Below the pieces are notes generated by a model. It saw only the letters and a program-made list of their open reading frames with translations, ran no database searches and was not told where the DNA came from. Shown piece by piece: positions 3,052-41,866 of a stretch of DNA of 64,000 nucleotides. This DNA is from Rhizobium sp. Q54 (GTDB taxonomy: Bacteria; Pseudomonadota; Alphaproteobacteria; UBA7879; VGCX01), in NCBI GenBank assembly GCA_945870825.1, contig CAMBTM010000004.1, positions 2,594 through 66,593 on the forward strand, written 5' to 3'. The first letter of the stretch is position 1. The number at the start of each line of letters is the position of its first letter. Made by a program: the position numbers and the translations under genes.

Positions 3052-3135
3052 AAATAGTTTTTTTATGCCCTTCCTTAGGGGGGGTGTTTGTTGATATAAG
3101 AATGAATCCAGTTTGGGAGGAATTTTCACCCAGAC

Positions 3136-3147: not shown

Positions 3148-3168
3148 GGGAAAATTTAGGGATAGTTT

Positions 3169-6812: not shown

Positions 6813-8988
<2,176 letters not shown>

Positions 8989-8992
<4 letters not shown>

Positions 8993-9615: not shown

Positions 9616-9624
9616 GCTATTCCA

Positions 9625-10626: not shown

Positions 10627-11662
10627 ACTTGGGGCAAGAAAAATAGGGACAGGATTTCCAGCTTATATAGTGGCCGAAATTGGCATTAACCATAATGGGG
10701 ATATGGATCTTGCAAAAAAAACTATCTTGGCAGCTAAAAAAGCTGGAGCATGTGCTGTAAAGTTTCAAAACTATAAAACGGAAGATTTTGTACCCATAAG
10801 AAACTTGGAATATGAGTATCTTTCTCAGGGAAAATTAGTTAAAGAGTTTCAATATGATATGTTTAAGCGCTATGAGTTGAGCGATAATCATGTGATGGAG
10901 TTAAAAGCTTTTTGTGATGAAAATAATATTGACTTTCACTCGACACCTACAAATAACCATGGCGTGGATCTTTTAAAGAAAATTGGTGTTCTCGTTCTTA
11001 AAAATGGTTCTGATTATTTGACCAACCTAGATCTTATTACGTATATGGGAAAATCTGGATTGCCTACGGTTTTGTCCACAGGGATGGCTCTCATCAGTGA
11101 AATAGATGAAGCTGTAAGGGTTTTTCGTGATGCTGGTAATGAGAACCTGATTTTACTCCATTGTACCTCACGGTATCCAACGCCTCCGGAGGACATTAAT
11201 TTAAGAAAAATTAAAACTCTTCGAAAGACGTTCGCAGTTGTTGCGGGGTTTAGTGACCATTCAGAGGGCGCTTGGGCAGCTGCAGGATCCATTTGTTATG
11301 GGGCAGTGTGGATTGAGAAACACTTTACTTTGGATAGAAACTTACCTGGACCTGATCACAGATTTTCTTCTGATTCAACAGAGTTATCTCATTTAGTTGA
11401 GGGTGTCAGATATATGGAAAAATCATTGGGGGTATCTGCTCTTGGACCAACAGATGAAGAGAAAGGATCAAGAGAGAGTTTTCGCTTGTCGTGCTGTGCT
11501 GCCAGAGATTTAGAAGTTGGTGCAATGCTTTCTAGTGAAGATATCATGTTTCTTCGCCCTGGAGATGGGATTCCTCCAAAAAATAAAGATCTATTAGTGG
11601 GTAGGAAGGTTAATAAATGTTTAAAACAGGGGGACCCCATAGGTTCTAAAGATATTAGCTAA
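10613..11662 (+). CDS. pseI: Pseudaminic acid synthase (NeuB family), PseI-like
   Basis: NeuB TIM-barrel N-terminus YIVAEIGINHNGDMDLAKK..AK.AGA, with a C-terminal SAF/antifreeze-like domain. Confidence 0.8.
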   Translation: MTYIELGARKIGTGFPAYIVAEIGINHNGDMDLAKKTILAAKKAGACAVKFQNYKTEDFVPIRNLEYEYLSQGKLVKEFQYDMFKRYELSDNHVMELKAFCDENNIDFHSTPTNNHGVDLLKKIGVLVLKNGSDYLTNLDLITYMGKSGLPTVLSTGMALISEIDEAVRVFRDAGNENLILLHCTSRYPTPPEDINLRKIKTLRKTFAVVAGFSDHSEGAWAAAGSICYGAVWIEKHFTLDRNLPGPDHRFSSDSTELSHLVEGVRYMEKSLGVSALGPTDEEKGSRESFRLSCCAARDLEVGAMLSSEDIMFLRPGDGIPPKNKDLLVGRKVNKCLKQGDPIGSKDIS

Positions 11663-12507
11663 TGAAAATAAAAATTGTTTTCTTAGGCAACCATACGGTA
11701 GGGGTTCAAGTATTGAAAACAATGCATGAACTGGGTTGTCTATCTGGAATTATTGCACACCCAGAAGATCCAGAAGATGGGGTAAGGTATTTATCTGTAT
11801 ACGAGTATGGAAAACAGCTTAACGTGCCGGTGATAAGGGCAACACCAAAAGATCCAGTCCTGAGAGAATTTATTAATAAAATTAAGCCGGATCTTATTTG
11901 GGTTACGGACTATAAATACTTACTTCCCTCTTCAGTATTTTTATTCCCTAGGTTGGGGGCTATCAACCTCCATCCCAGTCTTTTACCTTATTACAAAGGG
12001 CGTGCTTCTTTAAATTGGGCGCTTATTTATGGAGAAAAAAAAGTTGGATTAACAGCACATTTTATTGATGAAGGTGTTGATACTGGTGATATTATTAAGC
12101 AGGTGGAGTTACCACTTCATGAAGATGATTATATCGGAGATGTTCTTGATAAAATATATCCTTTATATAGTCAAATTACGCGAGAGGTCATAGAGATGTT
12201 TAGAGAGGGCGCGGTCCTTAGGCATAAACAGCTCGAAGACGGAGGATCAATCTATCCAGCTAGAACAGAGAAAGATGGCTTGATTGATTGCACATGGTCT
12301 GCACAAAAAGTGTTGAACTTTATTAAAGCCCTTTCAAAACCCTATCCAGGTGCTTTTGTGATAGACGGAGCCAATAAAATTATTGTTTGGAGAGCCGAAT
12401 TAGTATCAATCGAATTTGAATCCTTAGGGATTCATAGAGTGGGGGATGATATATATCTTCAGTGTGGGGACGGGGCTTTAAAAATAAAAGATTGTAAGAT
12501 GGTTTGA
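11662..12507 (+). CDS. Sugar N-formyltransferase (Fmt/ArnA-N/WlaRD family)
   Basis: Formyl-transferase catalytic motif HPSLLPYYKGRASLNWALIYGEKKVGLTAHFIDEGVDTGDI. 281 aa. Sits directly after pseI, where pseH would be expected. Confidence 0.7.
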   Translation: MKIKIVFLGNHTVGVQVLKTMHELGCLSGIIAHPEDPEDGVRYLSVYEYGKQLNVPVIRATPKDPVLREFINKIKPDLIWVTDYKYLLPSSVFLFPRLGAINLHPSLLPYYKGRASLNWALIYGEKKVGLTAHFIDEGVDTGDIIKQVELPLHEDDYIGDVLDKIYPLYSQITREVIEMFREGAVLRHKQLEDGGSIYPARTEKDGLIDCTWSAQKVLNFIKALSKPYPGAFVIDGANKIIVWRAELVSIEFESLGIHRVGDDIYLQCGDGALKIKDCKMV

Positions 12508-12525
12508 TAGGTAGGGAGAATAAAA

Positions 12526-13191
12526 ATGTTTAATGCCGTTTGGAATGAAAAATATGCCGCGGGTGATTCACTCAATAAGTATCCATGGGATAAAATTGTA
12601 AGCTTCATCTTTAAGTTTCGTCCTCGAAATAAAGAAAGACATGAAACTAAAGTTTTAGAACTAGGATTTGGGAGTGGCTGTAATTTATGGTTCTGTGCAC
12701 GAGAGGGTTTTGATTGTTATGGTATTGAGGGATCAGCAATTGGTGTTAAACATGCTCAGCAATGGTTCTCTAAGGAGAATTTGCAGGCTGATTTGACGCA
12801 AGGAATGTTTTATCCATTAAATTTTTCAGAAGAATTTTTTGATTTGATTATTGATAGAGGTTCTCTAACTTGCGTTAACTCTAAGGACAGCTATTTGTCG
12901 CTGCAAGAAATTTTCAGAACTTTAAAAACCGGGGGTTATTTTTGCTTTAATCCCTATTCGACTCGTCACACATCTTCTGTAGAAGGGACTTTGCTACCCA
13001 CAGGGTTGACTAAAATAAAATCGGGCACTCTAACAGGGGTAGGAGATATTAAATTTTATGATGAAAAAACAATTAGAGAACTTGTTGAAAAAGTAGGCTT
13101 CAAAATAAAAGAAATGCGCCACATAGAAGATCATTATTTTACCCCTTCTTATGGCACTCATGCAGAATGGTTTTTGGTTTTGGAGAAATAG
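12526..13191 (+). CDS. Class I SAM-dependent methyltransferase
   Basis: Motif I VLELGFGSGCN and post-I FDLIIDRGSL. Confidence 0.55.
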   Translation: MFNAVWNEKYAAGDSLNKYPWDKIVSFIFKFRPRNKERHETKVLELGFGSGCNLWFCAREGFDCYGIEGSAIGVKHAQQWFSKENLQADLTQGMFYPLNFSEEFFDLIIDRGSLTCVNSKDSYLSLQEIFRTLKTGGYFCFNPYSTRHTSSVEGTLLPTGLTKIKSGTLTGVGDIKFYDEKTIRELVEKVGFKIKEMRHIEDHYFTPSYGTHAEWFLVLEK

Positions 13192-13195
13192 GAGA

Positions 13196-13789
13196 ATGCA
13201 TAATAAAGATTATGTTACATTAAACAAATCTGTCTATTTAGAGTGCTTATCTAAGAATGGGGATAGTCACCTATCTCTTAATTGGGGGAGCAAAGACTCT
13301 CAAGACAAGCGGTTCAAAGCATTGATCGATGTTGCTCAAAATATTTTTGTATCGAATATATTAGATGTTGGTTGCGGGCTTGGACATTTTTTAGACTTTC
13401 TTTTGACAAAAGGGTTTCATGGAAATTATACAGGGAGTGATATTTTAGAAGAAATGATTGCAATGGCTAAAATACGTCATACCAATTCAATGTTTGAAGT
13501 AAAAAATCTCTCTAGTTACTCTTCCCATTCTTATGATTATGTTTTTATGAGTGGTATTTTTACGTTAGCCGATGAAAAAATCTTTAAGGAAATGGTGAGT
13601 ATGGCATTCGATGTGTGTGCAAAAGGCCTTGCCTTTAATTCTCTCAGCACATGGGCACCACAAAAAGAAGATAATGAATTTTATGCAGATCCCCTTAAGA
13701 CGTTAGAATTTTGTTCTAAATTAACGCCAAAAGTTGTTTTAAAACATGAATATTTGCCCCATGATTTTACAATTTATATGTATAAATAA
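13196..13789 (+). CDS. Class I SAM-dependent methyltransferase
   Basis: Motif I ILDVGCGLGHF. Start placed at the internal ATG just after the upstream stop; the ORF as called from 13151 would overlap by 41 nt. Confidence 0.55.
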   Translation: MHNKDYVTLNKSVYLECLSKNGDSHLSLNWGSKDSQDKRFKALIDVAQNIFVSNILDVGCGLGHFLDFLLTKGFHGNYTGSDILEEMIAMAKIRHTNSMFEVKNLSSYSSHSYDYVFMSGIFTLADEKIFKEMVSMAFDVCAKGLAFNSLSTWAPQKEDNEFYADPLKTLEFCSKLTPKVVLKHEYLPHDFTIYMYK

Positions 13790-14476
13790 ATGATCATATC
13801 AATTAATCAGCCAGCTTATTTGCCTTGGCTAGGTTACTTCAATAGAATCGTAAAAAGTGACCTGCATATTGTTTTAGATCATGTGCAGTTTGAGAAAAAT
13901 AGTTTTATAAATAGAAATAAAATACTTTTGGATGGAAAACCTTTGTGGTTGACATTGCCCATATTAACAAAAGGTCATTTCAATGATTTGAGAATCGAAG
14001 ATTTATTGATTGATTCTAAAATAAATTGGGAAAAAAAGCATCTTTCATCAATCATGCAGGCTTACTCAAAATCTTCACATTGGATCGAATTCAAGGATGA
14101 GTTAGAAATAATCTATTCTAAAAATACAGATTCTCTCAGCAATATTTTGGATGATTCTCTAAAATTTTTTATGAAGTATTTAAAGATAGAAACACCTATT
14201 GAGTATTCTTCAAAATACGATTTTCGTGCTAGAAAAAGTGATCTTGTTTTGGAGATTTGCCAGAGATTTCAAGCGCGTTATTATCTTTCTGGTCCTCTTG
14301 GACGAAATTATTTGGAACTCACTAAATTCCAAGATTGTGGTATTGAGATTTTATTTGATGATTATGTGCATCCTATTTATCCGCAAAAATCAGAAAACTT
14401 CATCCCCTACCTATCTACTTTAGATCTTATAGCTAATTGCGGAAAAGAATCATTGAGGGTTTTAACAAATGTCTAA
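13790..14476 (+). CDS. WbqC-family protein
   Basis: Characteristic WbqC N-terminus MIISINQPAYLPWLGYFNRI. Confidence 0.7.
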   Translation: MIISINQPAYLPWLGYFNRIVKSDLHIVLDHVQFEKNSFINRNKILLDGKPLWLTLPILTKGHFNDLRIEDLLIDSKINWEKKHLSSIMQAYSKSSHWIEFKDELEIIYSKNTDSLSNILDDSLKFFMKYLKIETPIEYSSKYDFRARKSDLVLEICQRFQARYYLSGPLGRNYLELTKFQDCGIEILFDDYVHPIYPQKSENFIPYLSTLDLIANCGKESLRVLTNV

Positions 14477-15143
14477 AAATATTCTTATTATTGCGGCGCA
14501 TCCAGATGATGAGGTCTTGGGATGTGGTGCTACAATGGCACGGCATACCCATCATGGTGACAATGTGGGGGTTGTTTTTGTTTCAGACGGTGTTGGGGCA
14601 AGAAATAGTGATTTTGAAAACAATTTAAAAAAGAGGAAAGAATCTGCCCTAAAGGCTTTGAAGATTTTAGGGGCAGATTGCTTAAGTTTTCTAGATTTCC
14701 CAGACAATCGGTTGGATACGATTCCATTTTTGGACATTGTGCAGCCCTTAGAAGATATCATCAACGCGTTTAATCCATCCATAGTGTATACGCATCATTA
14801 TGGAGATCTCAATATTGATCATGCCATTGTCCATCGTGCAATTATGACGGCCTGTAGACCTCTTCCTCATACACCTATAGAGGAAATTTATTCCTATGAA
14901 GTTGTTTCGTCTACTGAATGGGGTTTGCAAGGAGCTTATTTTCAACCTAACCGTTTTGTAGATGTTAGTGATTTTTTTTCAAAGAAGATTGAGGCGATTC
15001 AAGCTTATCATGAAGAGATGCGGCTTTTTCCTCATAGCCGTTCTATAGAACATATTGACGCCCTTGCGGTTCACAGAGGCGCAACTGTTGGACTAAAAAA
15101 AGCTGAAGCTTTTTTTCTAGTACGGGCAATCCATGGTAGATAA
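14469..15143 (+). CDS. PIG-L/LmbE-family N-deacetylase
   Basis: N-terminal ILIIAAHPDDEVLGCGATMA zinc-binding motif. Confidence 0.75.
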   Translation: MSKNILIIAAHPDDEVLGCGATMARHTHHGDNVGVVFVSDGVGARNSDFENNLKKRKESALKALKILGADCLSFLDFPDNRLDTIPFLDIVQPLEDIINAFNPSIVYTHHYGDLNIDHAIVHRAIMTACRPLPHTPIEEIYSYEVVSSTEWGLQGAYFQPNRFVDVSDFFSKKIEAIQAYHEEMRLFPHSRSIEHIDALAVHRGATVGLKKAEAFFLVRAIHGR

Positions 15144-16971
15144 GTATAAAAAATTCCAAGGAGTTGCAATTGTTCAATATCCTGAGCAAGTGGGTATTTA
15201 TAAAAATTATTTTTCCCGCGAAGGGATTCCTCAAGACAGCATCTTTTGGGTGGCCACTAGTGATCCCGCATTTTTCTTTTTAGAAAAAGAAAGAATAGCT
15301 TTTTCAAAAATAACAGATTTCTATGATTATAATATTTTTTATAAAAATGTTTTTAATGAATCATATAAAAATTTAGACAAGGCACTAAGATGTATAGATA
15401 AAGAAATATTTACATATTATCCTACATTAGAAAAATATGGAATTTCTTTTGCTGAGGGGTCTCTCTATTATCTAAGGATGTGGTGTGATAGTTTTGAAAC
15501 TGATCTTTATGAAATGCAATCTCTTAAAAATATCATTTCTGACAGCTCTAAAGTATACTATGTCCCATCTTCAAAGCAGGGTTTTTTTTATGGATTATAT
15601 CCCATGCATATCAACCGATCACTGGAAGAAGTGCTCGGGCTAGTCTTTGAAAAAGATAGACTGCATGCTTTAGACTCCTTTGATCCCAAGACAAGCATTG
15701 TAAGTTTTTCAAAAGATTTTGAAGAAAAAGAGATAAATGACTTTTTTAAAAATAGAATTGATACTTTTGGTCATATAGAAAGACTTAAAAAGAGATTAGA
15801 GTCCCTGCTTCAAGATTTATGGGGAGAGAAAAAATATCTGGCCATGGGGATCGATAAAGACTGGATGTCAGATTCTGGATCTTTTGACTTTTTTGAAAAC
15901 TATATTGATGAAATTCAAAATTTGCCATCATCTATAAAAGTAGATCATGATAAATATATAAAAAATATAAGCCATTTTTTTGTTATTAGTGGAATCAATT
16001 ATTATGATTGCATGAAGCATATAATTCATAAAACACTAGAAAAATTCTTAATTTCTTCCTTTAAAACTATAGATTTCTATCATAATGATAAAAATAAAGA
16101 AAAATGGACGGCTCTTTTTTCTATCGGTTTTGTTAGTTTTGAATCTCAATCATTAGCAAAACTTTTTAAGTTTTATGGAAAAAAAGTTATTTGTACTCAT
16201 CACGGCTCTTTGGCAATTCTAGAAGACAAAATCAATCATTACCTGGAATATCCTTATATCACAGACTATATTGTTTGGGGGGAAGGTGTAAAAAACCAAT
16301 TACAAACAGAATATGATTTCAGCAATATACGCATACATACTTTGGGGTCTTTATCTCTAGCGTGTTTGAAAAATACGATAGAGAAGGTAAAAGAAAAAAA
16401 AATATCAAAGTCACAGTTTAAAAAACCCATTATTATTTTCTTGCTTCAGAGTATAAACGATAAAGTAAGGGTAACGCTTGATCATCCCCCAGGCATCATT
16501 GATTTTATCAATCAAAGAGATTTGATCACCTCTATCTTAGATACTCATCTTGATTTTGAGCTGATTATAAAAGGACACCCTTCTACAGCGGGTTATCTTC
16601 AGTCTTCCTTGAGGTTTTTATTTAAAAAGGATAGTAGAGTGCATTATACAAGCACACTCCCATTGAAAAATTTTCTAGCAGACAGTATGTATTTTATAAC
16701 AGACAGGCCTTCTACATCCTTGTTTCAAGCAATGATCGCTGGATTGAAGTGTTATTGTTTGATAAATTCAGAATTTTATACAAGCAATTTTATTGAATGT
16801 TTAAAAGAAGATGGCATCCTGTTTAAAAATAATCAAGCACTTGTAAAAGCACTGCATAATGACTTAGCCACTAAGAGGAAAGGGGAAAATCTTGAAACCT
16901 CTGTTACAATAAAAAAATATTGTACTATTTATAATGGTCCTATTGAGGAGGTGCTTAGTTTTGAAAAATAA
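15133..16971 (+). CDS. Hypothetical protein (612 aa), possible polysaccharide glycosyltransferase/polymerising enzyme
   Basis: Long soluble ORF inside the locus with no motif I can assign. Its size and context fit a Maf/KpsC/TagF-like transferase. Confidence 0.35.
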   Translation: MVDKYKKFQGVAIVQYPEQVGIYKNYFSREGIPQDSIFWVATSDPAFFFLEKERIAFSKITDFYDYNIFYKNVFNESYKNLDKALRCIDKEIFTYYPTLEKYGISFAEGSLYYLRMWCDSFETDLYEMQSLKNIISDSSKVYYVPSSKQGFFYGLYPMHINRSLEEVLGLVFEKDRLHALDSFDPKTSIVSFSKDFEEKEINDFFKNRIDTFGHIERLKKRLESLLQDLWGEKKYLAMGIDKDWMSDSGSFDFFENYIDEIQNLPSSIKVDHDKYIKNISHFFVISGINYYDCMKHIIHKTLEKFLISSFKTIDFYHNDKNKEKWTALFSIGFVSFESQSLAKLFKFYGKKVICTHHGSLAILEDKINHYLEYPYITDYIVWGEGVKNQLQTEYDFSNIRIHTLGSLSLACLKNTIEKVKEKKISKSQFKKPIIIFLLQSINDKVRVTLDHPPGIIDFINQRDLITSILDTHLDFELIIKGHPSTAGYLQSSLRFLFKKDSRVHYTSTLPLKNFLADSMYFITDRPSTSLFQAMIAGLKCYCLINSEFYTSNFIECLKEDGILFKNNQALVKALHNDLATKRKGENLETSVTIKKYCTIYNGPIEEVLSFEK

Positions 16972-17677
16972 TAAGATTTTAGCCGCATGGCAGCAACTTC
17001 CATCACCCCAAGTCACCATCGCCATGGCGAGTTTGGGGTTTGATTGGGTGGTGGTGGATCTTGAGCATACGTCAATTACAACACAAGAAGCAGAAGCTAT
17101 TTTTATGGCTGCAGAACGTTGCAATGCTAAGCCTTTTGCAAGACTTCCTTCTGCAGAGCCCTATCTTGCACGACGTCTTCTAGATGCGGGTGCTGTGGGG
17201 TTGCTTATTCCCGTTGTTGAATCAAAAGAGTCGTTTAATGATTTTGCGCGTCATTGCTTTTTTCCTCCCAAAGGACGACGGGGATTAGGGTTAGTGCGTG
17301 CCAATGGATGGGGAGATCATTTGAAAGAGTATTTCGATGACTTTAAACCTCTTCTTATCGCTCAAATTGAGACAAAATTGGCTGCTGATAATATTCATAG
17401 CATTCTTTCTTCTGAGTTTTTAGACGGCATTATGGTGGGGCCCTATGATCTTTCCGCGAGCCTTGGAAAACCAAGACAATTTGATGATCCAGACTTTAAA
17501 AAATTGTGCCAGTTCATTGTGGAGGAAGCGAGAAAGAAGAAGAAACTCGTTGGATTTCATCAGGTTGAACCAAATCTTGAGGCTTTGAAATTACGTATCC
17601 AAGAAGGATATGACTTTGTTGCCTATGGGACCGATATTGTTGCTTTAAGGCATGCGTTAACAGGAGTGAAATCATGA
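16961..17677 (+). CDS. HpcH/HpaI-family class II pyruvate aldolase
   Basis: GFDWVVVDLEHTSI and MVGPYDLSASLG motifs. Start set at the TTG preceded by GAGGAGG; the ATG at 16934 overlaps the upstream gene by 38 nt. Confidence 0.6.
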   Translation: MKNNKILAAWQQLPSPQVTIAMASLGFDWVVVDLEHTSITTQEAEAIFMAAERCNAKPFARLPSAEPYLARRLLDAGAVGLLIPVVESKESFNDFARHCFFPPKGRRGLGLVRANGWGDHLKEYFDDFKPLLIAQIETKLAADNIHSILSSEFLDGIMVGPYDLSASLGKPRQFDDPDFKKLCQFIVEEARKKKKLVGFHQVEPNLEALKLRIQEGYDFVAYGTDIVALRHALTGVKS

Positions 17678-18432
17678 AAAAAATATGTGTTATTCCAGCA
17701 AGGATGGGTTCCACACGGTTTCCAGGGAAACCCTTGGCAACAGCCCTTGGTATTCCTGTGATTGTTCATGTAGCAAAGCGATGTGCCTTGTCAGGGCATA
17801 TTGATCATAGTGTGGTTGCAACCTGTGATTTAGAAATTAAGAACGTTTGTGAAGAAAATGGAATCGCCGTTATCATGACGAGTGATCAGCACGAACGTTG
17901 CACGGATAGGGTTAGTGAGGCTATTGAAAAATGTGGATGGGAATTTAAGGATGATGACTTTGTCTTGATGGTTCAAGGGGATGAGATTTTGGTAACCCCA
18001 GCCATGTTAGATTCCGTGATCGATGAGTATGAACGCACGCGGTCGCCGGTGGTTAATCTTCTCTCCACAATATATGCAGCGCAAGATCATGAGGACCCTA
18101 ATGTTGTGAAAGTGGTTTCTGCTCCTGATCAAAGAGCTCTCTATTTCTCAAGAGCGCCTATTCCTTCAAGATATAGAGATAGTCAGGCTCCCTCTTATCA
18201 GCAGACGGGGGTTATCGGATTTTCTAGAAAATTTTTAAGAGAATTTAGTGAGTTACCACAAACACCTTTAGAAAAAATAGAATCCATTGATATGCTCAGA
18301 GTCTTAGAACATGGTCTTCCCTTGAGGGTTGTCTATACGGACAAAGAAACTGTTGCTGTTGATGTGCCTTATGATCTGGAGCGTGCTGAAAAAATCTTGG
18401 CAACAGATCCCCTTGTTAAAAACTATGCGTAA
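17674..18432 (+). CDS. KdsB-like cytidylyltransferase (3-deoxy-ulosonate/CMP-sugar synthetase family)
   Basis: MKKICVIPARMGSTRFPGKPLA...IVHV closely parallels the KdsB N-terminus. 252 aa. Confidence 0.75.
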   Translation: MKKICVIPARMGSTRFPGKPLATALGIPVIVHVAKRCALSGHIDHSVVATCDLEIKNVCEENGIAVIMTSDQHERCTDRVSEAIEKCGWEFKDDDFVLMVQGDEILVTPAMLDSVIDEYERTRSPVVNLLSTIYAAQDHEDPNVVKVVSAPDQRALYFSRAPIPSRYRDSQAPSYQQTGVIGFSRKFLREFSELPQTPLEKIESIDMLRVLEHGLPLRVVYTDKETVAVDVPYDLERAEKILATDPLVKNYA

Positions 18433-19384
18433 GAAAATTCTTATCTCGAATATAGGATTCGGCGATGCCTCTTCTCAAGCAATAGGAGTCCTTGAAAACA
18501 AGGCATTAGTGATTGAAAACAAAGATAGACGCCGATTCACGGAAGAAGATTTCATAAAAACTATCCAAGATGTGGAAATCCTTATTGCAGGGACGGAAAA
18601 GATTACAACGTCTGTTCTTGAAAATGCTCCTTGCCTAAAGCTTATTGCACGGGTGGGGGTAGGGGTGGACAATATCGATCTAGATGCTGCACGAGAAAAG
18701 AAAATAAGCATTTGCTATACCCCAGATGCGCCTTCTGAATCTGTTCCTGAATTTACCCTAGCGCTTATCTTCAATCTTTTGAAGGGTATTGGGGAGTCGG
18801 ATCGAAAAATGCATCAAGCCAAGTGGCATCGACCCATGGGGAGGATGCTTTCTTCTTGTATTGTTGGAATCGTTGGCGCTGGAAAAATAGGATCCAAGGT
18901 TGCCCAATTGATTCATTCACTATCTTCTTCAACAACAGTTTTATTTTATGATCCCTATGTTGAGGCCATCCCCTCTGCAGAAAAATGTGATTTGGAGGAT
19001 CTTTTGAAGAGGTCGGATGTGGTGTCACTGCATCTTTCTCTGAATGCTGGGACAAAAGGACTTATCAATGAAGATCTTTTGAGTAAAATGAAACAAGGAA
19101 GTTATTTGATCAATACATCGCGTGGGAGTGTGATTGATGAAGGGGCTCTTTATACGGCCCTTCAAACCAAACATTTAGCAGGAGCAGCACTCGATGTCTT
19201 TAATGTTGAGCCTTATAATGGGGCGTTGACAGAACTGGACAACTGCCTCTTAACCTCTCATATTGGTTCTATGACGCATGAGGGAAGGGCGTTGATGGAA
19301 AACCAGGTAGCTGAGGATGTGGTTCGTTATTTGGATAATCAGTCGTTACTCAGGTCTTTGAAAGGATTTGATTTTGCAAGGTAA
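18425..19384 (+). CDS. D-isomer-specific 2-hydroxyacid dehydrogenase (NAD-binding)
   Basis: GIVGAGKIGSKVAQL NAD fold and the catalytic region SRGSVIDEGAL...HIGSMTHE. Start placed at the internal ATG with an 8-nt overlap. Confidence 0.7.
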   Translation: MRKKILISNIGFGDASSQAIGVLENKALVIENKDRRRFTEEDFIKTIQDVEILIAGTEKITTSVLENAPCLKLIARVGVGVDNIDLDAAREKKISICYTPDAPSESVPEFTLALIFNLLKGIGESDRKMHQAKWHRPMGRMLSSCIVGIVGAGKIGSKVAQLIHSLSSSTTVLFYDPYVEAIPSAEKCDLEDLLKRSDVVSLHLSLNAGTKGLINEDLLSKMKQGSYLINTSRGSVIDEGALYTALQTKHLAGAALDVFNVEPYNGALTELDNCLLTSHIGSMTHEGRALMENQVAEDVVRYLDNQSLLRSLKGFDFAR

Positions 19385-19385
19385 A

Positions 19386-20276
19386 ATGAAAAAAGCGGTA
19401 GTCTTTGGTGGATCTGGGTTTGTGGGAAGTCATGTAGCGGATGCTTTAACAAACGCTGGCATAGAAACCACAATTTTTGACCTACACCCTTCTGACTTTA
19501 TTAATGATAAGCAGATTTTTATTCAAGGAAGCATTTTAGATCAAGACTTGGTCCAAAAGACCATTGAAGGTAAAGATTATGTGTATCACTTAGCTGGACA
19601 AGCTGATATTGGGATTGGATTTGAGACACCAAAGGATACATTGCATTTAAATATCCAAGGCACCATTAATATTCTTGAAGCATGTCGCAAGGCAAGCATT
19701 GAACGGTTTGTGTTTGCCTCTACAGTTTATGTTTATTCTGATGTGGGTGGTTTTTATAGAGCCAGCAAGCAAGCCTGTGAAATTATCATCGAAGAGTATC
19801 AAAAGAATTTTGGTATTGATTATACAATTCTGCGATATGGGTCTTTGTATGGTCCGCGTGCGGGGGAAAAAAACTTTATTTATCGTATTATTCAACAGGC
19901 TATTCTTGATAAAAAAATCAAGGTTGGCTATGAAAACGATGAAAAAAGGGATTTTATCCATATCTATGACGCTGCCCGTATGAGTGTTGATATTCTCAAA
20001 GAAGACTATAAAAACGTGCATGTGATGCTGACCGGGTATCAACATATTAGTCGGGGTGAGTTAATTAATATTGTTACTGAAATGCTGGGCGGTGGAATTG
20101 AGATTCAAATTACGAAACCTGAACTTGATAAGGCTCATGGGCATTATAAATTAACGCCTTATGTGTTTAAACCAAAAATTTCACGAAAACTTGTAAGCTC
20201 TGAATACTTAGAGTTTGGACAAGGGATTTTGAGCTGTATGGAAGAGATTTATGAAAAGCACGTTAAACAAGACTAG
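19386..20276 (+). CDS. NAD-dependent epimerase/dehydratase (SDR family)
   Basis: VVFGGSGFVGSHV motif and YRASKQACE (YxxxK). Confidence 0.7.
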   Translation: MKKAVVFGGSGFVGSHVADALTNAGIETTIFDLHPSDFINDKQIFIQGSILDQDLVQKTIEGKDYVYHLAGQADIGIGFETPKDTLHLNIQGTINILEACRKASIERFVFASTVYVYSDVGGFYRASKQACEIIIEEYQKNFGIDYTILRYGSLYGPRAGEKNFIYRIIQQAILDKKIKVGYENDEKRDFIHIYDAARMSVDILKEDYKNVHVMLTGYQHISRGELINIVTEMLGGGIEIQITKPELDKAHGHYKLTPYVFKPKISRKLVSSEYLEFGQGILSCMEEIYEKHVKQD

Positions 20277-20895
20277 ATCATTTTTTCTTGATTTTGATGG
20301 TGTTGTCGTTGAATCAGCTGATATTAAAACAGAAGCTTTTTATGATCTCTATCTTCCTTATGGTAAAGAAGTTGCAATCCTAGCAAAAGACTACCATCTT
20401 AATCATCAAGGTGTTAGTCGTTCTAAGAAATTTGATGCCATGCATGAACTTTTTCTGGGGAAAAAGTGTTCTGATGATGAAAAAAAGATTTTAACCAAAA
20501 AATTCTCAGAACTTGTTTTTGATAAAATTCTTCTATGCCCTTTGGTAGATGGAATTATTGGATTTCTCAAACAACAGAAAGAGAAAAATATCCCTGTTTT
20601 TTTACTCTCTGCCACTCCCCATGATGAACTCCTTAATATTTGTGAAAAGAGAGGGCTTTCTCTGTTTTTTAAGGAAATGTATGGGGCCCCTTTTGAAAAA
20701 AGTGAAAGAGGCACGTTTATCATGCAGCAGCATCACTTTGCCAAAAATGACATTATTTTTATTGGAGATAGTATCAGTGATTTTAATGCGGCTTCTGCCA
20801 TAGGGGTTAATTTTATAGGACGTGTCAAAGAGGGAGATAAAAACCCTTTTGATTCCAAAGTTAAAGTGATCAAGGATTTCAAAGCACTATTATGA
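20251..20895 (+). CDS. HAD-superfamily hydrolase/phosphatase
   Basis: Motif I FFLDFDGVVVES and motif IV FIGDSISD. Confidence 0.6.
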   Translation: MKSTLNKTRSFFLDFDGVVVESADIKTEAFYDLYLPYGKEVAILAKDYHLNHQGVSRSKKFDAMHELFLGKKCSDDEKKILTKKFSELVFDKILLCPLVDGIIGFLKQQKEKNIPVFLLSATPHDELLNICEKRGLSLFFKEMYGAPFEKSERGTFIMQQHHFAKNDIIFIGDSISDFNAASAIGVNFIGRVKEGDKNPFDSKVKVIKDFKALL

Positions 20896-21503
20896 AAGAA
20901 CACTTATTTGAATCCTTAGAAGAAGCTGGATTGTTTTTAAAAGAAAGCATTCAAAATGATCTACAGCGGCAGATAAATATATATGATCAGGCAGTTCTCA
21001 TTCTTCCGGGTGGTAATAACATTCGGTCATTCTTTCCTTATTTAATTGATCTTGATGTTGATTGGAAAAGAGTTGCCATTGGATTGAGTGATGAACGATG
21101 TGTTTCTCTTGAGGATTCGATGAGCAACGAACGACAGTTGCGGGAATGTTTTTTATCCCATCTTCCAAAATATAATTACCATCCACTGAATCAAGACTTC
21201 GTCCATAAAATTCAAGAGATTGCTCCTATTACACTCTTAAGCATGGGGATTGATGGTCATGTTGCTTCACTTTTTTCTGAGGAATCATCAGAGTGGGGCG
21301 CAATGGGTGTGAGTCTTTATAAGACGAAAAAACAAAACCCAAACCGCGTCGGGCTTTCGAAAGAGGCCTTGCTTCTATCCGATAAAATTTATATCTTAGC
21401 AAGAGGTCCGGAGCGTTTGGAAAGACTTAATGAGATAAAAGAGGCGTCATTTTATTTGGGTGATGTTTATGAGAAGGCTGTGATGATTAAGGTGTTAAAA
21501 TGA
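20892..21503 (+). CDS. 6-phosphogluconolactonase/glucosamine-6-P isomerase-family protein
   Basis: LSMGIDGHVASLF signature of the Pgl/NagB sugar-phosphate isomerase fold. Confidence 0.5.
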   Translation: MKEHLFESLEEAGLFLKESIQNDLQRQINIYDQAVLILPGGNNIRSFFPYLIDLDVDWKRVAIGLSDERCVSLEDSMSNERQLRECFLSHLPKYNYHPLNQDFVHKIQEIAPITLLSMGIDGHVASLFSEESSEWGAMGVSLYKTKKQNPNRVGLSKEALLLSDKIYILARGPERLERLNEIKEASFYLGDVYEKAVMIKVLK

Positions 21504-22336
21504 TAAAGAAAATTATTAAAGATTTACTTGCGAATACTGCTCAAAAATTAGTTAGGTTTTGTGTGAATAAGGGGTGCATGACACAAGATGATGTCATTGA
21601 AAAATTAAGTGAGTATGTTGATGTTCCAACAAAACATGGAGTGATAAAGTTTTTTTGTCCTGGCCAAATTCCTATTTGGAGAGCAAATACATTTTTTGAT
21701 TTAGAGCCTGAAACCTTAGCATGGGTGGATTCTTTTGAAACGGATACTGTTTTTTTCGATATTGGTGCTAATGTGGGTTTATACAGCCTTTATGCTGGAA
21801 TGAAGGGGCATGAAGTCTTGTCTTTTGAGCCCTATAGTGCAAATCAATATATTTTAAACAAGAATATATATATTAATAAACTTGATCATAGAATTACAGC
21901 GTTATCTGCTGCAATCTCAGATAAGTTTCAATTTTCTAAATTTTACATGCAAAATATGCAGTTTGGTTCGGCAGAAAATACAACAGGAAAAGCTGTGGAC
22001 TGGAAAGAAGAAAAATTTATTCCAAAATTTCAACAAGGGATTATGGAATATTCTTTAGATCAGCTTTTAAATATTCAAAAGATGCCGTTCCCAAATTATA
22101 TAAAGATAGATGTTGATGGGGTTGAAGATCAAATATTGCTGGGTGCTCGTGAAACTTTAAAGGATATTAGAGTGAAGCAAGTTCTTATTGAGCTGGATGA
22201 AAAACACTCAATGCACGACTGGTGTGTAAAATTTATGGGGGAAAGTGGTTTTGTATTAGATGTTAAAGAACAAAGTGATGTATTTGCACAAGGTACATAC
22301 AAAAATATGTATAACTACATATTTTCAAGAAAATAA
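21500..22336 (+). CDS. FkbM-family methyltransferase
   Basis: FFDIGANVGLYSLYAGMKGHEVLSFEP motif. Confidence 0.7.
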   Translation: MIKKIIKDLLANTAQKLVRFCVNKGCMTQDDVIEKLSEYVDVPTKHGVIKFFCPGQIPIWRANTFFDLEPETLAWVDSFETDTVFFDIGANVGLYSLYAGMKGHEVLSFEPYSANQYILNKNIYINKLDHRITALSAAISDKFQFSKFYMQNMQFGSAENTTGKAVDWKEEKFIPKFQQGIMEYSLDQLLNIQKMPFPNYIKIDVDGVEDQILLGARETLKDIRVKQVLIELDEKHSMHDWCVKFMGESGFVLDVKEQSDVFAQGTYKNMYNYIFSRK

Positions 22337-22348
22337 TAAACCATCTTT

Positions 22349-24139
22349 ATGATTATTTCTTTTAGAGATTTATATCCTTTCAAGGAATTTACGTCATCTT
22401 TTTACTTCATAGGGTTCAACACAGAAAATCTGCTCTCCCTTGAAAAAAAAGGGATTTCCGTTTCTTTCTTAGCAAAAGAAAGAATGACAATTTTAAATGA
22501 GATTAGAGACGATATTATCAACTTTGACAAAGGGATTGCTGATGTATCAGATCCTTTGTGGCTTGCGAGTGATCTCGCTGAAAACAATATCTGTCTTGAA
22601 AATTTTAACCTCTATATCCTTAATACGCTGTCTATTATTAGAAATGAACGATTGCAAAAAAAGGGAGTGGTTTTTATTTGTGATGATGATGAACAAGTCT
22701 ATCTTTACAAATCTCTTTTAAAGGGAAATGGTCTTAAAATAACTGGACGTGTTAATTACTTTAAACTTCTAAGAAGGCTCATGGGGTGTCTCACTCAAAA
22801 AGTTCTAGGCCTTTATCAGAGTGTGTGTAAAGTAGTGATTCTGCGCAGCTTAAGGCGTGGTTACCGCGTCAAACTACAGACAGAAGATTTAGAAAAAACA
22901 GATATTCTTTGTATGAATTGGGTTGCTGAACAATCATTTAGAGATGGAAATCTTTTTCTAAAAGATCGGTATTTCGGTGATTTGCTCTCGAAATTAAAGC
23001 AAAAAAAATTAAAAGTCGCCGTTATGGGTAAGGCTCTTGATTTTGTCTGTTCTTTCAAAGAAATTGCAAGGTCTGCAATCAATGAGAAAAGCCAGGTCTA
23101 TTTTCTACAAGATTTCTTAAAAATATCCGATATTTTTAAGATATTTTTTCAGTCATTTGGATTTTTGAAATATTTTAATCATCCATTCGTTGTGAAGGAC
23201 GTTAATTTTTCTCACCTATGGCAATGGTTCTGCTTAAAAGATGCCTTAAAGCCCCGGATTCCTTCAGCTTTAGAAACATTTCATGCAGCGCGCAGTATTT
23301 GCAAAACTATTAAGAACCCTGATATAAAATTAATTTACCCTTATGAGAATCAAGCGTGGGAAAAAGTTTTAGCCCTAGCCTTTGCACAGAAATTCTCTTC
23401 GAATCATCTTTATGCGTATCAGCATTTTCCTGTGTCGAAGGATTATCTAACAATTTATCCATCGAATGCGTATAGAGAAAGAAAGATTAACCCAAAGATT
23501 TTATTAAGCGATTCCTTTTTTGGCAATTATTTGAGAGAAAAAGGATGTGGAGACACTACCCTGCTAGGGAATTTTAGATTTGAAAATGTACTGAAAAATG
23601 ATCAACAATGTTCTTCTGTAAAAAAAGAGGACATTCTCTGCGCTTGTTCCATTCAATTTAATGATTCTTTGGAACTTATATCAAGATCTATAAAGCTGAT
23701 TCAAAAGTTTGATCCGACTTTTCAACAAAAGATCACATTAACAGTCAATTTTCATCCCCTTATGCGAGATATTGAAAAGAAAAAAATAAGAGAGCTTTTT
23801 TCTGATGCTAGGATTAATATCCACTGGTCTCCATTAAGTGCAGACGAACTTTTAAAGAGTACACGCATAGTTTTTTATAACTCAAATTCTATTTGTTTGA
23901 ATGCAGCAGCAAATGGTATTCCAGCAGTGTTTATTAGTTCAGACTTACAAATAGATCTTGATAGAATTCCAGATATATCTATAAAAGATGATGAGCTAGG
24001 GATAAAAAAAATAGAATCTATTTTGAGCAATGAAGATCACTATAGGATGGAATCAAACCTATTTAGAGGCTATTTTGAATCATATTTTGTGCCACCGCAG
24101 CACTCAATCTTGAATGAAATTTTTAAACGAGGGCAATAA
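22349..24139 (+). CDS. Hypothetical protein (596 aa), possible capsule/teichoic-like polysaccharide transferase
   Basis: Long soluble ORF. C-terminal region (IHWSPLSADELLKSTRIVFYNSNSICLNAAANGIPAVFISS) is reminiscent of GT-B/TagF-like C-domains. Confidence 0.35.
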   Translation: MIISFRDLYPFKEFTSSFYFIGFNTENLLSLEKKGISVSFLAKERMTILNEIRDDIINFDKGIADVSDPLWLASDLAENNICLENFNLYILNTLSIIRNERLQKKGVVFICDDDEQVYLYKSLLKGNGLKITGRVNYFKLLRRLMGCLTQKVLGLYQSVCKVVILRSLRRGYRVKLQTEDLEKTDILCMNWVAEQSFRDGNLFLKDRYFGDLLSKLKQKKLKVAVMGKALDFVCSFKEIARSAINEKSQVYFLQDFLKISDIFKIFFQSFGFLKYFNHPFVVKDVNFSHLWQWFCLKDALKPRIPSALETFHAARSICKTIKNPDIKLIYPYENQAWEKVLALAFAQKFSSNHLYAYQHFPVSKDYLTIYPSNAYRERKINPKILLSDSFFGNYLREKGCGDTTLLGNFRFENVLKNDQQCSSVKKEDILCACSIQFNDSLELISRSIKLIQKFDPTFQQKITLTVNFHPLMRDIEKKKIRELFSDARINIHWSPLSADELLKSTRIVFYNSNSICLNAAANGIPAVFISSDLQIDLDRIPDISIKDDELGIKKIESILSNEDHYRMESNLFRGYFESYFVPPQHSILNEIFKRGQ

Positions 24140-24141
24140 AA

Positions 24142-25215
24142 ATGTTTTTAAAGAAAAAAAGTTATTTAAGAGCTATACAGCGTATTAGAATTCCAGAAAC
24201 ACGTGATTTAGTCCATGGATTAAGACTAGATCGCAATGAGAGGGTTGCCGATTGGCCTGACAACTTTATGGCAGAGGTTCTTTCTTCAAAACATGCCTCT
24301 TTCTTTAGTACCTATCCCGATCTTTCAGGGCTTTATAAGAAATTATCTTCCCATTTAAATGTTAAACAGTCCCAAGTTCTTGTATCATCTGGTATTGATG
24401 GTGTTATTAAAACTCTCTTTGAAATACTGGTGAATCCAGGTGAAAAAATTGGCGTATTTGCACCAACTTACGCCATGTACGACGTTTATGCAAAGTTATT
24501 TCAATCTGAGATGGTTCATGTGGGTTATAAGGAAAATTATGAGCCAAATTGGGATTCTTTTGAGGCATTTTTAAAGCAAGATCCCATTATTCTGTTCTTA
24601 CCTAATCCAAATCAACCAATAGAATCCTGCTTTTCTTTGGAAGAATTAAGACTTATTGCAAAGAAATGCTTGGACATTGGATGTCTATTTGTTGTGGATG
24701 AAGCCTATCACTATTTTGGTGCAGAATCTGCACTTCCTTTGATAAATGAATTTGAAAATGTTGTTGTTATGAGGACTTTTTCAAAAGCCTTTGGTATTCC
24801 CTCTGCACGTCTTGGATATATGGTCTCAACAGAAGAGAATATGGAACTCCTTTCTAAAACACGTCTTGCTCACGAAGCAAACGCATTAAGTGCTGCTATG
24901 GCTGAGTACCTTTTAGATAATTTTGATATTGTAAAGGATTATGCCAATCAAATTAATCAAGCACGGGCTTATGTTAAGAAGGAGCTATTAGAATTGGGTG
25001 TTCATGCAAGGGGAGAGAAGGGAAACTATCTTTTGATTCCACTTGCATCCAGTTTGCAAACAAAAAATTGCGTAGCATCCTTGAGAGAGCAAAAAATTTA
25101 TGTGAAAGGCCCATGGAACGCTCCCTGGGATAATTGCATCACTATAACGCTAGGGCCTAAAGACCTTATGGAACGTTTTATAGAGTCCATAAAAGAATTT
25201 ATGAGGCACGCATGA
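24142..25215 (+). CDS. Class I/II PLP-dependent aminotransferase (HisC/CobD-like)
   Basis: FSKAFGIPSARLGY lysine motif typical of histidinol-phosphate aminotransferase-like enzymes. Confidence 0.65.
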   Translation: MFLKKKSYLRAIQRIRIPETRDLVHGLRLDRNERVADWPDNFMAEVLSSKHASFFSTYPDLSGLYKKLSSHLNVKQSQVLVSSGIDGVIKTLFEILVNPGEKIGVFAPTYAMYDVYAKLFQSEMVHVGYKENYEPNWDSFEAFLKQDPIILFLPNPNQPIESCFSLEELRLIAKKCLDIGCLFVVDEAYHYFGAESALPLINEFENVVVMRTFSKAFGIPSARLGYMVSTEENMELLSKTRLAHEANALSAAMAEYLLDNFDIVKDYANQINQARAYVKKELLELGVHARGEKGNYLLIPLASSLQTKNCVASLREQKIYVKGPWNAPWDNCITITLGPKDLMERFIESIKEFMRHA

Positions 25216-26150
25216 AAATTCTTGTTACAGGTGGAATGGGGTATATAGGAAGTAACCTTATCAAACGGTTAGAGAAAGATAATCATGCAATAACAATTCT
25301 TGATAATCTTTCCACAAGTCTTAAGGGGGGCCAAACTCAGCATGAATTAGTTTGTGCGGATATTACAAACTATGAATTACTTAAAGCATCTTTTGAGGGA
25401 AGAGTATTTGATGTTGTTTTGCATCTCGCTGCGCAATCTTCAGGCCCAGCTTCTTTTAAAGATCCAGAGCTTGATTTAAGAATTAATATTCTTGGAACCT
25501 TAAATATTATTCGGTTATGTGATCATCTTAAAATACCAAGAATTCTGTTTGCGTCCTCATTTACTGTTTACGGTGATAATCTTACACATGAAATGCTTAG
25601 TGAATCTTTACCCTGTGAACCAAAATCTCTTTATGGGGTTGGTAAATTAACGGGAGAACAGTATCTTAAAGTGTACGCCGAAAAGCTTGGTATCTCTTGG
25701 AATGCTCTACGCATGTTCAACGTTTATGGACCAGGGCAAGATTTATCTAGAAAAGATCAAGGGATTGTCAGCATTTTTCTGGGGTATGTGAGAGAAGGGG
25801 ACTATATTCCACTACAAGGAAAAGTAGAGAGATTTAGGGACTTAGTTTATATCGATGATGTGGTATCAGCGTGGGTTTTATGTCTCGAAAAAAATATTCC
25901 TAACCAAATTTTTAATGTTGGATCGGGATCTAAAACAACTATCAAAGAGTTGATCGAGTCAATCGCTGATTTACATAAAAAAAACGTTACCATTGAGGTT
26001 GTTGGATCCACTCCTGGCGATATTATGGGGTGCTATGCAGACATCTCTAAGTCTCGAGATCTCTTAGGATATAATCCTCAGTACCAACTAAAATCTGGAT
26101 TAGCTCATTTCAAAAATTGGGCGGATCAGACCTTTGGAGAAGTAGTATGA
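25212..26150 (+). CDS. NAD-dependent sugar epimerase/dehydratase (GalE-like)
   Basis: MKILVTGGMGYIGSNL and YGVGKLTGE (YxxxK). Confidence 0.75.
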   Translation: MKILVTGGMGYIGSNLIKRLEKDNHAITILDNLSTSLKGGQTQHELVCADITNYELLKASFEGRVFDVVLHLAAQSSGPASFKDPELDLRINILGTLNIIRLCDHLKIPRILFASSFTVYGDNLTHEMLSESLPCEPKSLYGVGKLTGEQYLKVYAEKLGISWNALRMFNVYGPGQDLSRKDQGIVSIFLGYVREGDYIPLQGKVERFRDLVYIDDVVSAWVLCLEKNIPNQIFNVGSGSKTTIKELIESIADLHKKNVTIEVVGSTPGDIMGCYADISKSRDLLGYNPQYQLKSGLAHFKNWADQTFGEVV

Positions 26151-29706: not shown

Positions 29707-29715
29707 AATTTCCCC

Positions 29716-33174: not shown

Positions 33175-33213
33175 AATCCCCATCATACCTAAGCTGTGAT
33201 GGGGATTTTTTTA
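33175..33213 (+). terminator. Rho-independent terminator for the MFS gene
   Basis: Perfect 11-bp stem AATCCCCATCA/TGATGGGGATT with an 11-nt loop, followed by TTTTTTT. Overlaps the stop of the convergent CAP10 gene. Confidence 0.65.
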
Positions 33214-41865: not shown

Positions 41866-41866
41866 A

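Follow-up and report, generated by a model that had tools for sequence, protein, structure and literature searches.

A conserved gene block pairing a class II pyruvate aldolase with a KdsB-like cytidylyltransferase is a candidate source of a CMP-activated ulosonic acid other than Kdo

Six translationally coupled genes lie on the plus strand at positions 16961 to 21503 of a 64,000-nucleotide (nt) stretch of the genome of the alphaproteobacterium Rhizobium sp. Q54 (GenBank assembly GCA_945870825.1, contig CAMBTM010000004.1, positions 2,594 to 66,593; the whole stretch is referred to here as the window). They encode a pyruvate aldolase of the HpcH/HpaI family, a cytidylyltransferase related to KdsB, the enzyme that activates 3-deoxy-D-manno-octulosonate (Kdo) with cytidine monophosphate (CMP), and four further enzymes, and catalytic motifs are kept in all six proteins. 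The junctions of the block are overlaps of 4, 8, 26, 4, and 4 nt, or a 1-nt gap, and terminator-like sites were not enriched (6 found versus 7.5 expected). A preliminary description made from the sequence had placed six proteins of these families here; all were found at those positions, and the families were borne out by Pfam and NCBIfam. The same description had proposed that the block works without KdsA. Pfam scans detected no KdsA-type (DAHP_synth_1) gene in the operon, and no DAHP_synth_1, KdsC-type, or SIS-plus-CBS gene within positions 6822 to 31745; the one synthase of the NeuB type in the operon is paired with a short cytidylyltransferase of its own. These results, together with the conservation described below, support the view that the six genes are translated together as one unit of a glycan locus, which evolution has conserved.

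The first gene (positions 16961 to 17677, plus strand) encodes a 238-amino-acid (aa) class II (metal-dependent) pyruvate aldolase. The TTG start proposed for it at 16961 stood up to inspection, lying 8 nt after GAGGAGG and giving a protein of the length seen in orthologues (235 to 241 aa). The aldolase scored 99 bits against Pfam PF03328 (HpcH_HpaI; cut-off, 25) and 111 to 127 bits against the HpaI, GarL, and RhmA equivalogs (cut-offs, 369 to 441), which places it outside those three groups. HpaI, GarL, RhmA/YfaU, and SwHKA have their fold and catalytic residues in common with it: E44/H45, R70, E146, and D172 align with H50, R75, E153, and D179 of GarL, and this catalytic set is invariant in 27 orthologues. 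The alignment supports the prediction of a catalytically intact class II pyruvate aldolase. Enzymes of this family reversibly form 4-hydroxy-2-oxo acids, 2-keto-3-deoxy sugar acids included, and some take hydroxypyruvate as the donor; hydroxyketoacid aldolase is the name under which PDB entry 6R62 was deposited. The known members act in catabolism or have no known physiological role, whereas the clade in the window is found within glycan loci, coupled to a cytidylyltransferase, and the physiological direction of the catabolic members is opposite to that proposed here. No hpa, gar, or rhm genes were found near the aldolase among the window neighbors annotated with Pfam and NCBIfam. Catabolism of aromatic compounds, which the preliminary description had named as part of one outcome that would undo its proposal, is contradicted by the glycan context and the synteny, and catabolism of sugar acids is ruled out on the same grounds. 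A phosphonate-type pathway was also considered, as the HpcH fold is related to that of phosphoenolpyruvate (PEP) mutase; no Ppm was found, and the match is clearly to HpcH.

The start of the second gene (positions 17674 to 18432, plus strand), here designated CytT, overlaps the stop of the aldolase gene (ATGA), in agreement with the direct overlap previously described, and the N-terminus that had been called nearly KdsB-like reads IPARMGSTRFPGKPL, as quoted. CytT is a KdsB-family cytidylyltransferase, scoring 149 bits against Pfam CTP_transf_3 and passing the NCBIfam cut-offs of NF009905 (score/cut-off, 275/255), NF003952 (257/193), and TIGR00466 kdsB (165/155), with only 39 bits against PseF (cut-off, 206). 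Its identity to E. coli KdsB is ∼37%, and its homologues are called CMP-Kdo synthetase in public sources. Residues R10, R15, K19, Q98, D100, and D235, which serve cytidine triphosphate (CTP) binding and two-metal catalysis in KdsB (PMC2901514, PMC3149649), are kept in CytT and 13 close relatives; Q98, D100, and D235 constitute the metal site (PMC2901514). These residues support the prediction that CytT is a catalytically intact relative of KdsB.

The sugar side of the active site is different. The six Kdo-type enzymes compared represent five lineages (E. coli KdsB, E. coli KpsU, and those of Aquifex, Bacteroides, Sinorhizobium, and Streptomyces) and without exception have H181, Y185, E210, and Q211; CytT carries the substitutions H181Q, Y185I, E210D, and Q211M. 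The four positions are Q, I, D, and M in CytT and all 13 close relatives, and Q, S, D, and F in the cytidylyltransferases of the module type designated III below. In a model based on crystal structure 3K8D of E. coli KdsB, Q98 and Y185 are hydrogen bonded to the C5 hydroxyl of Kdo, and 5-deoxy-Kdo is not a substrate (PMC12199768). Replacement of the four invariant residues, including the one that binds the C5 hydroxyl, argues that the substrate of CytT is a ulosonic acid other than Kdo. Thus, as judged from its residues, CytT very probably carries out KdsB chemistry on a sugar that is not Kdo. Its genomic link is to the HpcH aldolase rather than to KdsA, KdsC, KdsD, or lipid A-core genes. The KdsB-like proteins of type IV modules, from Prochlorococcus and SAR11 (locus L039, positions 12243 to 13043; locus L047, positions 12262 to 13029), keep E210 and Q211; they have R10H, H181I, and Y185I, and the metal ligand D235 is replaced by N. 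When CytT was compared by tblastn with 72,556 plasmids, only canonical kdsB genes at <40% identity were recovered, and no member of the CytT clade. A plasmid of the Gram-positive Streptomyces sp. NBC_01471 carries a kdsB (locus L072, positions 5986 to 6729) with the full H181, Y185, E210, and Q211 signature; no lipopolysaccharide (LPS) genes were annotated near it.

The remaining four genes of the block encode enzymes that could prepare or modify a sugar acid. The third (positions 18425 to 19384, plus strand) codes for a D-isomer-specific 2-hydroxyacid dehydrogenase (2HADH) with a SerA-like fold, above the cut-offs of Pfam 2-Hacid_dh_C (168 bits) and 2-Hacid_dh (87 bits). Its best solved relative is the phosphoglycerate dehydrogenase of Pyrococcus horikoshii (1WWK; 201 bits), and catalytic residues R240, D264, E269, and H292 are kept. 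It scored 241 against the SerA model TIGR01327 (cut-off, 454) and so is not assigned to SerA. The anion-binding arginines of E. coli SerA, R60 and R62, are replaced by A and T throughout the type I members. Since the enzyme does not have these arginines, a dedicated SerA-like supply of hydroxypyruvate from 3-phosphoglycerate by the 2HADH and the phosphatase of the block, which was considered as a role for the pair, seems unlikely. The fourth gene (positions 19386 to 20276, plus strand; Pfam Epimerase, 153 bits) encodes an extended short-chain dehydrogenase/reductase (SDR) of the epimerase/oxidoreductase type, with motifs GGSGFVGSH (GxxGxxG) and YRASK (S/T-Y-K) in the translation, which contains no TDE dehydratase motif; its best solved relatives are the UDP-hexose 4-epimerases 6DNT, 3EHE, and 4ZRM.

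The fifth gene (positions 20251 to 20895, plus strand; Pfam HAD_2, 51 bits) codes for a C1-capped phosphatase of haloacid dehalogenase (HAD) subfamily IA, above the cut-off of NCBIfam HAD-SF-IA-v1, with motifs DFDGVV (DxDG) and GDSISD (GDxxxD); its best matches are HAD-IA and beta-phosphoglucomutase-type models. The suggestion that it is a KdsC analogue was not sustained with regard to homology: KdsC is a C0-type HAD-IIIA protein, and the 11 NCBIfam families listed for the phosphatase do not include the KdsC model TIGR01670. The sixth gene (positions 20892 to 21503, plus strand; Glucosamine_iso, 98 bits) encodes a 6-phosphogluconolactonase-like hydrolase of the Pgl/NagB fold, which scored 92 bits against TIGR01198 pgl, below the cut-off of 124. 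Its LSDER and GIDGHVASLF motifs align with the 6-phosphogluconolactonase of Thermotoga maritima, and all of its solved relatives are 6-phosphogluconolactonases. It therefore looks like a lactonase rather than an isomerase, which speaks against its proposed role as a KdsD analogue. In sister modules its place is taken by a SIS_2 isomerase or a cyclase-family hydrolase.

In order to evaluate the conservation of the block, a comparison was made of 62 loci, obtained by scanning GTDB (a single genome for each species) for members of the aldolase family, and of three loci otherwise obtained. The full set of six genes, in unchanged order, is found in a metagenome contig (L003), in three metagenome-assembled genomes of Alphaproteobacteria (L005, L007, and L008), and in one of a gammaproteobacterium (L011); the first four are present in L006, up to the end of the contig. 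Identities in the syntenic loci are 64 to 75% for the aldolase, 69 to 77% for CytT, 52 to 65% for the 2HADH, 69 to 82% for the SDR, 45 to 59% for the HAD phosphatase, and 37 to 58% for the lactonase-like protein, and a NeuB-type synthase lies upstream in each of these loci. Conservation of gene order across loci indicates that the grouping is not due to chance. In the 58 loci with a called aldolase, genes within 8 kb of it were counted, with open reading frames (ORFs) and families called mechanically and proteins grouped in single-linkage BLAST clusters: CytT was present in 41/58, the 2HADH in 29/58, the HAD phosphatase in 24/58, and a BigB-like protein (described below) in 25/58. The pair of aldolase and KdsB-like gene was found in more than 10 phyla, and the taxa of the aldolase-seeded loci include Omnitrophota, Elusimicrobiota, Planctomycetota, Bacteroidota, SAR11, and Prochlorococcus. 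Fluviispira multicolorata 33A1-SZDP is among the carriers in culture. In five of five contigs seeded instead by CytT homologues (57 to 61% identity), the HpcH gene ends at or overlaps the CytT start. The aldolase-cytidylyltransferase pair is the core of the module.

The genes around this core were grouped in this analysis into five module types, in most of which a 2HADH gene adjoins CytT. Type I, that of the window, has the 2HADH, extended SDR, HAD phosphatase, and Pgl-like protein; type II has a different CTP_transf_3 protein, a 2HADH, a HAD protein, an extended SDR, and a cyclase-family hydrolase; and type III has FSA/TalC, SIS_2, GFO, and HAD proteins, two classic SDRs, and a 2HADH. In type IV, from SAR11 and Prochlorococcus, BigB immediately follows CytT, and the other genes are those for KdsC, KdsA, a KdsD-like CBS protein, and a pair of classic SDRs. 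In type V, GFO, SIS_2, a classic SDR, an AroB-related TIGR04425 protein, and a 2HADH are found. Other ulosonic-acid enzymes of the sister modules are KdsA, KdsC, a DUF386 (YhcH-type) protein, a DHDPS/NanA-type aldolase, and the AroB-related protein. The last of these, annotated as a sugar phosphate phospholyase (cyclizing) and scoring 452 against TIGR04425 (cut-off, 400), is flanked by the SDR and the 2HADH in type V modules (locus L068, positions 9157 to 10227), and hints at intermediates of the DAHP (heptulosonate phosphate) kind or at deoxygenation by phosphate elimination.

Three further genes are closely associated with the block. An FkbM-family methyltransferase gene (positions 21500 to 22336, plus strand; Methyltransf_21, TIGR01444 above cut-off) overlaps the stop of the Pgl-like gene, and FkbM adjoins the aldolase in seven aldolase-seeded loci (the window, L018, L031, L033, L047, L061, and L064) and was also present in three cytidylyltransferase-seeded look-ups. 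It is followed by BigB (positions 22349 to 24139, plus strand), a 596-aa protein without a Pfam match or an assignable CAZy family. The AlphaFold2 model of BigB (mean predicted local distance difference test score, 89.4; predicted template modeling [TM] score, 0.90) matched UDP-GlcNAc 2-epimerases, trehalose-6-phosphate synthases, and BshA with a Foldseek probability of 1.0 and TM-scores of 0.55 to 0.60 on the target, and a GT-B fold with two Rossmann-like domains is predicted with confidence. BigB homologues occur in 25 aldolase-seeded loci, directly after CytT in those of SAR11, and BigB is a candidate transferase for the CMP-sugar. The block, the FkbM gene, and BigB form a self-contained sub-operon of the ∼31-kb locus.

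The stop of the gene on the other side, BigA (positions 15133 to 16971, plus strand; 612 aa), overlaps the aldolase start. BigA had no match in the Pfam and NCBIfam sets scanned, of which the Pfam set did not include the recent family PF27859 (LIC12162), and no similarity was detected between BigA and BigB. In many loci, a protein of ∼530 to 610 aa is encoded at the aldolase start or shortly before it. Proteins of 534 to 595 aa at or near this position in sister loci carry PF27859, their likeness to BigA being one of position; among them are a 581-aa protein in L003 (positions 8271 to 10016) that overlaps the aldolase start and a 595-aa protein in L002 (positions 7175 to 8962) one gene upstream. 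A tblastn search with BigA itself gave a single match, of 42% identity, located immediately upstream of the aldolase in L007.

It is possible, and in our judgment about an even chance, that the block together with FkbM and BigB makes and CMP-activates a 2-ulosonic (alpha-keto) acid other than Kdo, with the aldolase as the synthase. The class II aldolase would join pyruvate, or possibly hydroxypyruvate, to an aldose or aldose phosphate to give a 4-hydroxy-2-oxo (3-deoxy-2-ulosonic) acid; the HAD-IA phosphatase would remove the phosphate; and CytT would couple the anomeric C2 hydroxyl to CMP by the standard two-metal chemistry of KdsB. Preparation of the acceptor or tailoring of the acid may fall to the 2HADH, the extended SDR, and the lactonase-like hydrolase; the methyltransferases may methylate the acid, and BigB may transfer it to a glycan that also bears a sugar of the pseudaminic acid (Pse) type. 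We infer from the gene content the order of steps, the role of the aldolase in carbon-carbon bond formation, the donor, the acceptor, and the identity of the sugar. The aldolase is suggested as the synthase because in types I, II, III, and V it is the only enzyme forming carbon-carbon bonds beside the KdsB-like gene, and because the NeuB-type synthase of the window has its own short cytidylyltransferase. A second acidic sugar beside the Pse derivative had been proposed in the preliminary description. Because the sugar-side residues of CytT are unlike those of all Kdo enzymes compared, a second, non-Kdo CMP-acid is the most economical reading, and this part of the proposal stands; its skeleton need not be formed by the aldolase.

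Several observations weigh against the proposal that the aldolase is the synthase for a non-Kdo acid. No single linear route takes in all six enzymes, and the lactonase motifs appear to imply a lactone intermediate, which is superfluous to a scheme of aldolase, phosphatase, and cytidylyltransferase. CytT exceeds the NCBI thresholds for KdsB (EC 2.7.7.38), and it is their invariance that suggests that H181, E210, and Q211 line the sugar site. In type IV modules, a genuine KdsA (338; cut-off, 242) and a genuine KdsC (132; cut-off, 107, in the Prochlorococcus locus) precede the aldolase, so that two candidate synthases share one cytidylyltransferase and the aldolase may not build the activated acid. 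Furthermore, the loci were recruited by a peptide pattern derived from the aldolase, with their ORFs and families called mechanically. A linear chain from sugar phosphate through lactone, aldonate phosphate, and 2-keto-aldonate to CMP-sugar, catalyzed by the SDR, Pgl-like protein, 2HADH, HAD phosphatase, and CytT, is chemically tidy; it was rejected as it leaves the most tightly linked gene, that of the aldolase, without a role. For the unusual acids 3-deoxy-D-lyxo-heptulosaric acid (Dha), the 4-deoxy-2-hexulosonic acid of E. coli K3, D-glycero-D-talo-octulosonic acid (Ko), and 8-amino-Kdo (Kdo8N), there was no link at the level of genes.

The type IV arrangement, in which KdsC, KdsA, and a KdsD-like CBS protein lie directly upstream of HpcH, two SDRs, and CytT, raises the alternative that the aldolase is a tailoring or side-branch enzyme and that CytT activates an acid made by a housekeeping KdsA or by the KdsA and KdsC of type IV. 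We consider this unlikely, although it is the strongest of the alternatives. One possibility would be that the aldolase epimerizes C4 of a 2-keto-3-deoxy acid by a retro-aldol and an aldol reaction; another, that the aldolase and the 2HADH make a 2,4-dihydroxy acid or a pyruvate-derived branch on the glycan, and by established chemistry these two enzymes would be a natural combination for 2,4-dihydroxy acids. Fifteen loci have two synthase-type genes per one cytidylyltransferase, and the window encodes a PIG-L deacetylase and WbqC, which point to an amino sugar that is re-acylated, all consistent with a tailoring role. However, types I, II, III, and V have no KdsA- or NeuB-type synthase beside the KdsB-like gene, the Pse branch excepted, and the tightest and most widespread linkage is that of the aldolase stop to the CytT start. 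The CytT pocket differs from that of every Kdo enzyme compared, and the conserved core contains no acyl-activating enzyme.

The high scores of CytT against the NCBIfam KdsB models and the public naming of its homologues also fit a different alternative, a PEP-independent route to ordinary CMP-Kdo, in which pyruvate would be joined to D-arabinose or arabinose 5-phosphate and CytT would be a true CMP-Kdo synthetase serving a capsule, as KpsU does. A Kdo aldolase activity (EC 4.1.2.23) is on record in the older literature, and group 2 capsule loci do have their own KdsB paralogue, KpsU. However, KpsU keeps H181, Y185, E210, and Q211, a set that the HpcH-linked family never has; Y185 is required for recognition of the C5 hydroxyl of Kdo; and Kdo would require neither the lactonase-like hydrolase nor the two additional oxidoreductases, nor the methyltransferases, of which there are two or three. 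Thus, we regard a supply of ordinary CMP-Kdo as improbable. That a catabolic HpcH aldolase merely lies beside LPS or glycan genes by chance, as its nearest named families (HpaI, GarL, and RhmA) might suggest, is highly improbable and effectively refuted by synteny, given scores far below the equivalog cut-offs, the absence of hpa, gar, and rhm genes nearby, and an aldolase-CytT pair that is kept across phyla with overlapping start and stop codons.

The sub-operon is part of a single long plus-strand operon extending from about position 1955 to position 31745. The G+C content of the operon is 33 to 40%, compared to 42 to 48% in its flanks, and it is 33 to 37% across positions 12000 to 30000, inside the glycan locus; the low G+C content of the variable glycan part is consistent with horizontal acquisition. 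A Wzy_C/O-antigen-ligase-like protein is encoded before the operon (positions 121 to 1872), which starts with a MarR_EPS regulator, an RfaH-like antiterminator, and a PglK/MsbA-like ABC flippase. Two methyltransferases are also encoded in the head of the locus (positions 121 to 6812). Probably, the glycan is assembled on a lipid carrier and flipped by the ABC transporter, with en bloc ligation to follow, in the manner of lipooligosaccharide or O-linked protein glycosylation.

A Pse-type branch (positions 6822 to 11662, plus strand) in the same operon comprises PseB (495; cut-off, 408), PseC (486; 424), a short CTP_transf_3 protein, PseG (223; 154), and a NeuB-family synthase (NCBIfam scores). 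The synthase (positions 10613 to 11662), the sole PEP-type synthase in the operon, scored below both the NeuB and PseI cut-offs. The cytidylyltransferase of this branch (positions 8989 to 9615; 208 aa) matches KdsB-type models over its N-terminal half only (61 bits), and the PseF model was not among its matches in the NCBIfam scan at an E value of 1e-10 or better. No PseH acetyltransferase was found in the branch (positions 6822 to 15143). A formyltransferase (positions 11662 to 12507), then two methyltransferases, WbqC (positions 13790 to 14476), and the PIG-L deacetylase (positions 14469 to 15143) are encoded between the synthase and BigA. The presence of the formyltransferase, WbqC, and PIG-L protein with no PseH suggests that the Pse derivative is N-formylated or re-acylated.

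Downstream of FkbM and BigB, the operon continues with a HisC/CobD-like aminotransferase (positions 24142 to 25215, plus strand), a second extended SDR, SDR2 (positions 25212 to 26150, plus strand), a Methyltransf_23-type methyltransferase (positions 26117 to 27115, plus strand), and more SDRs, methyltransferases, and GT2 and GT4 glycosyltransferases, the first two assigned with Pfam and NCBIfam and the third with Pfam. The aminotransferase-SDR2 pair recurs in L007 (70% and 74% identity), SDR2-like genes adjoin BigB-like genes in L003, L005, L008, and L011, and the BLAST cluster of the Methyltransf_23 protein was found in 23 aldolase-seeded loci. The aminotransferase and SDR2 are possible tailoring genes. 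Elsewhere in the window, two BspA-type leucine-rich-repeat proteins (899 and 544 aa; positions 39166 to 43702) and a GT90-family glycosyltransferase (positions 33189 to 34298) are encoded on the minus strand; such proteins are often met in host-associated bacteria. The dnaA gene (positions 47769 to 49133, minus strand) and the end of the glycan locus are ∼16 kb apart, which places the locus near the chromosomal replication origin, and genes for TopA, RNase R, DprA, and pyruvate kinase lie between the two.

To our knowledge, CMP activation is known for only two classes of sugars, Kdo and the nonulosonic acids, and both are made by PEP-condensing synthases. The canonical CMP-Kdo pathway (KdsD, KdsA, KdsC, and KdsB) has in common with the block its end chemistry, the residues for CTP and magnesium, a phosphatase step, and a logic in which an alpha-keto sugar acid is dephosphorylated, activated with CMP, and transferred. 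It differs in that the PEP-dependent KdsA is replaced in the block by a pyruvate-dependent class II aldolase and KdsC (HAD-IIIA) by a HAD-IA protein, while the SIS-plus-CBS isomerase and H181, Y185, E210, and Q211 are absent and the block further contains methyltransferases, a 2HADH, an SDR, and a lactonase-like protein. The nonulosonic acid pathways (NeuB/NeuA; Pse, legionaminic acid [Leg], and ketodeoxynononic acid [Kdn]) yield the same type of product, a CMP-activated 3-deoxy-2-ulosonic acid for a surface glycan, and the block shares its operon with a branch of the Pse type. The Kdn route uses a sugar-phosphate acceptor and then a HAD phosphatase, as proposed for the block. However, nonulosonic pathways rely on a NeuB-type synthase and a cytidylyltransferase of the NeuA/PseF clade, in contrast to the non-NeuB synthase and KdsB-clade enzyme proposed here. 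In the Kdo8N pathway of Shewanella (the oxidase KdnB, the aminotransferase KdnA, and KdsB), redox and aminotransfer tailoring of a Kdo-type acid precedes CMP activation, which sets a precedent for such modification. KdnA and KdnB act on Kdo made by KdsA; the window has an aminotransferase and an SDR 3′ of BigB, and no iron-dependent alcohol dehydrogenase of the KdnB type was found at the window locus.

No description of a pathway combining HpcH with a KdsB-like enzyme was found among 8 million full texts, and literature searches returned no pathway description for the combination of nonulosonic acid, aldolase, and 2HADH or for LIC12162. This agrees with the earlier statement that the enzyme combination is undescribed, and the block is probably a previously undescribed variant of CMP-ulosonic-acid biosynthesis. 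More tentatively, and with somewhat less than an even chance of being correct, the pair of HpcH aldolase and remodeled KdsB-like enzyme could represent a large, unrecognized class of surface sugars, CMP-ulosonic acids built from pyruvate by a reversible class II aldolase in place of a PEP-dependent KdsA or NeuB synthase, in which the accessory sets of types I to V would vary the acids and BigB, as a new and dedicated family of GT-B transferases, would install them. As proposed, this class would range from freshwater Alphaproteobacteria to Omnitrophota, SAR11, and Prochlorococcus.

The signature Q181, I/S185, D210, and M/F211 provides a simple annotation test that separates these proteins from true KdsB. 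If the proposal is correct, CMP-activated sugars would have a third supply line, one that is based on an aldolase and has a cytidylyltransferase clade and a transferase family to itself, and this would account for thousands of genes that are automatically annotated as KdsB or as catabolic aldolases. The aldolase and CMP-transferase would also be a natural enzyme pair for biocatalysis. The products would be new acidic sugars for bacterial cell surfaces, with a bearing on the surface chemistry of very abundant marine and freshwater bacteria and on their recognition by phages and grazers.

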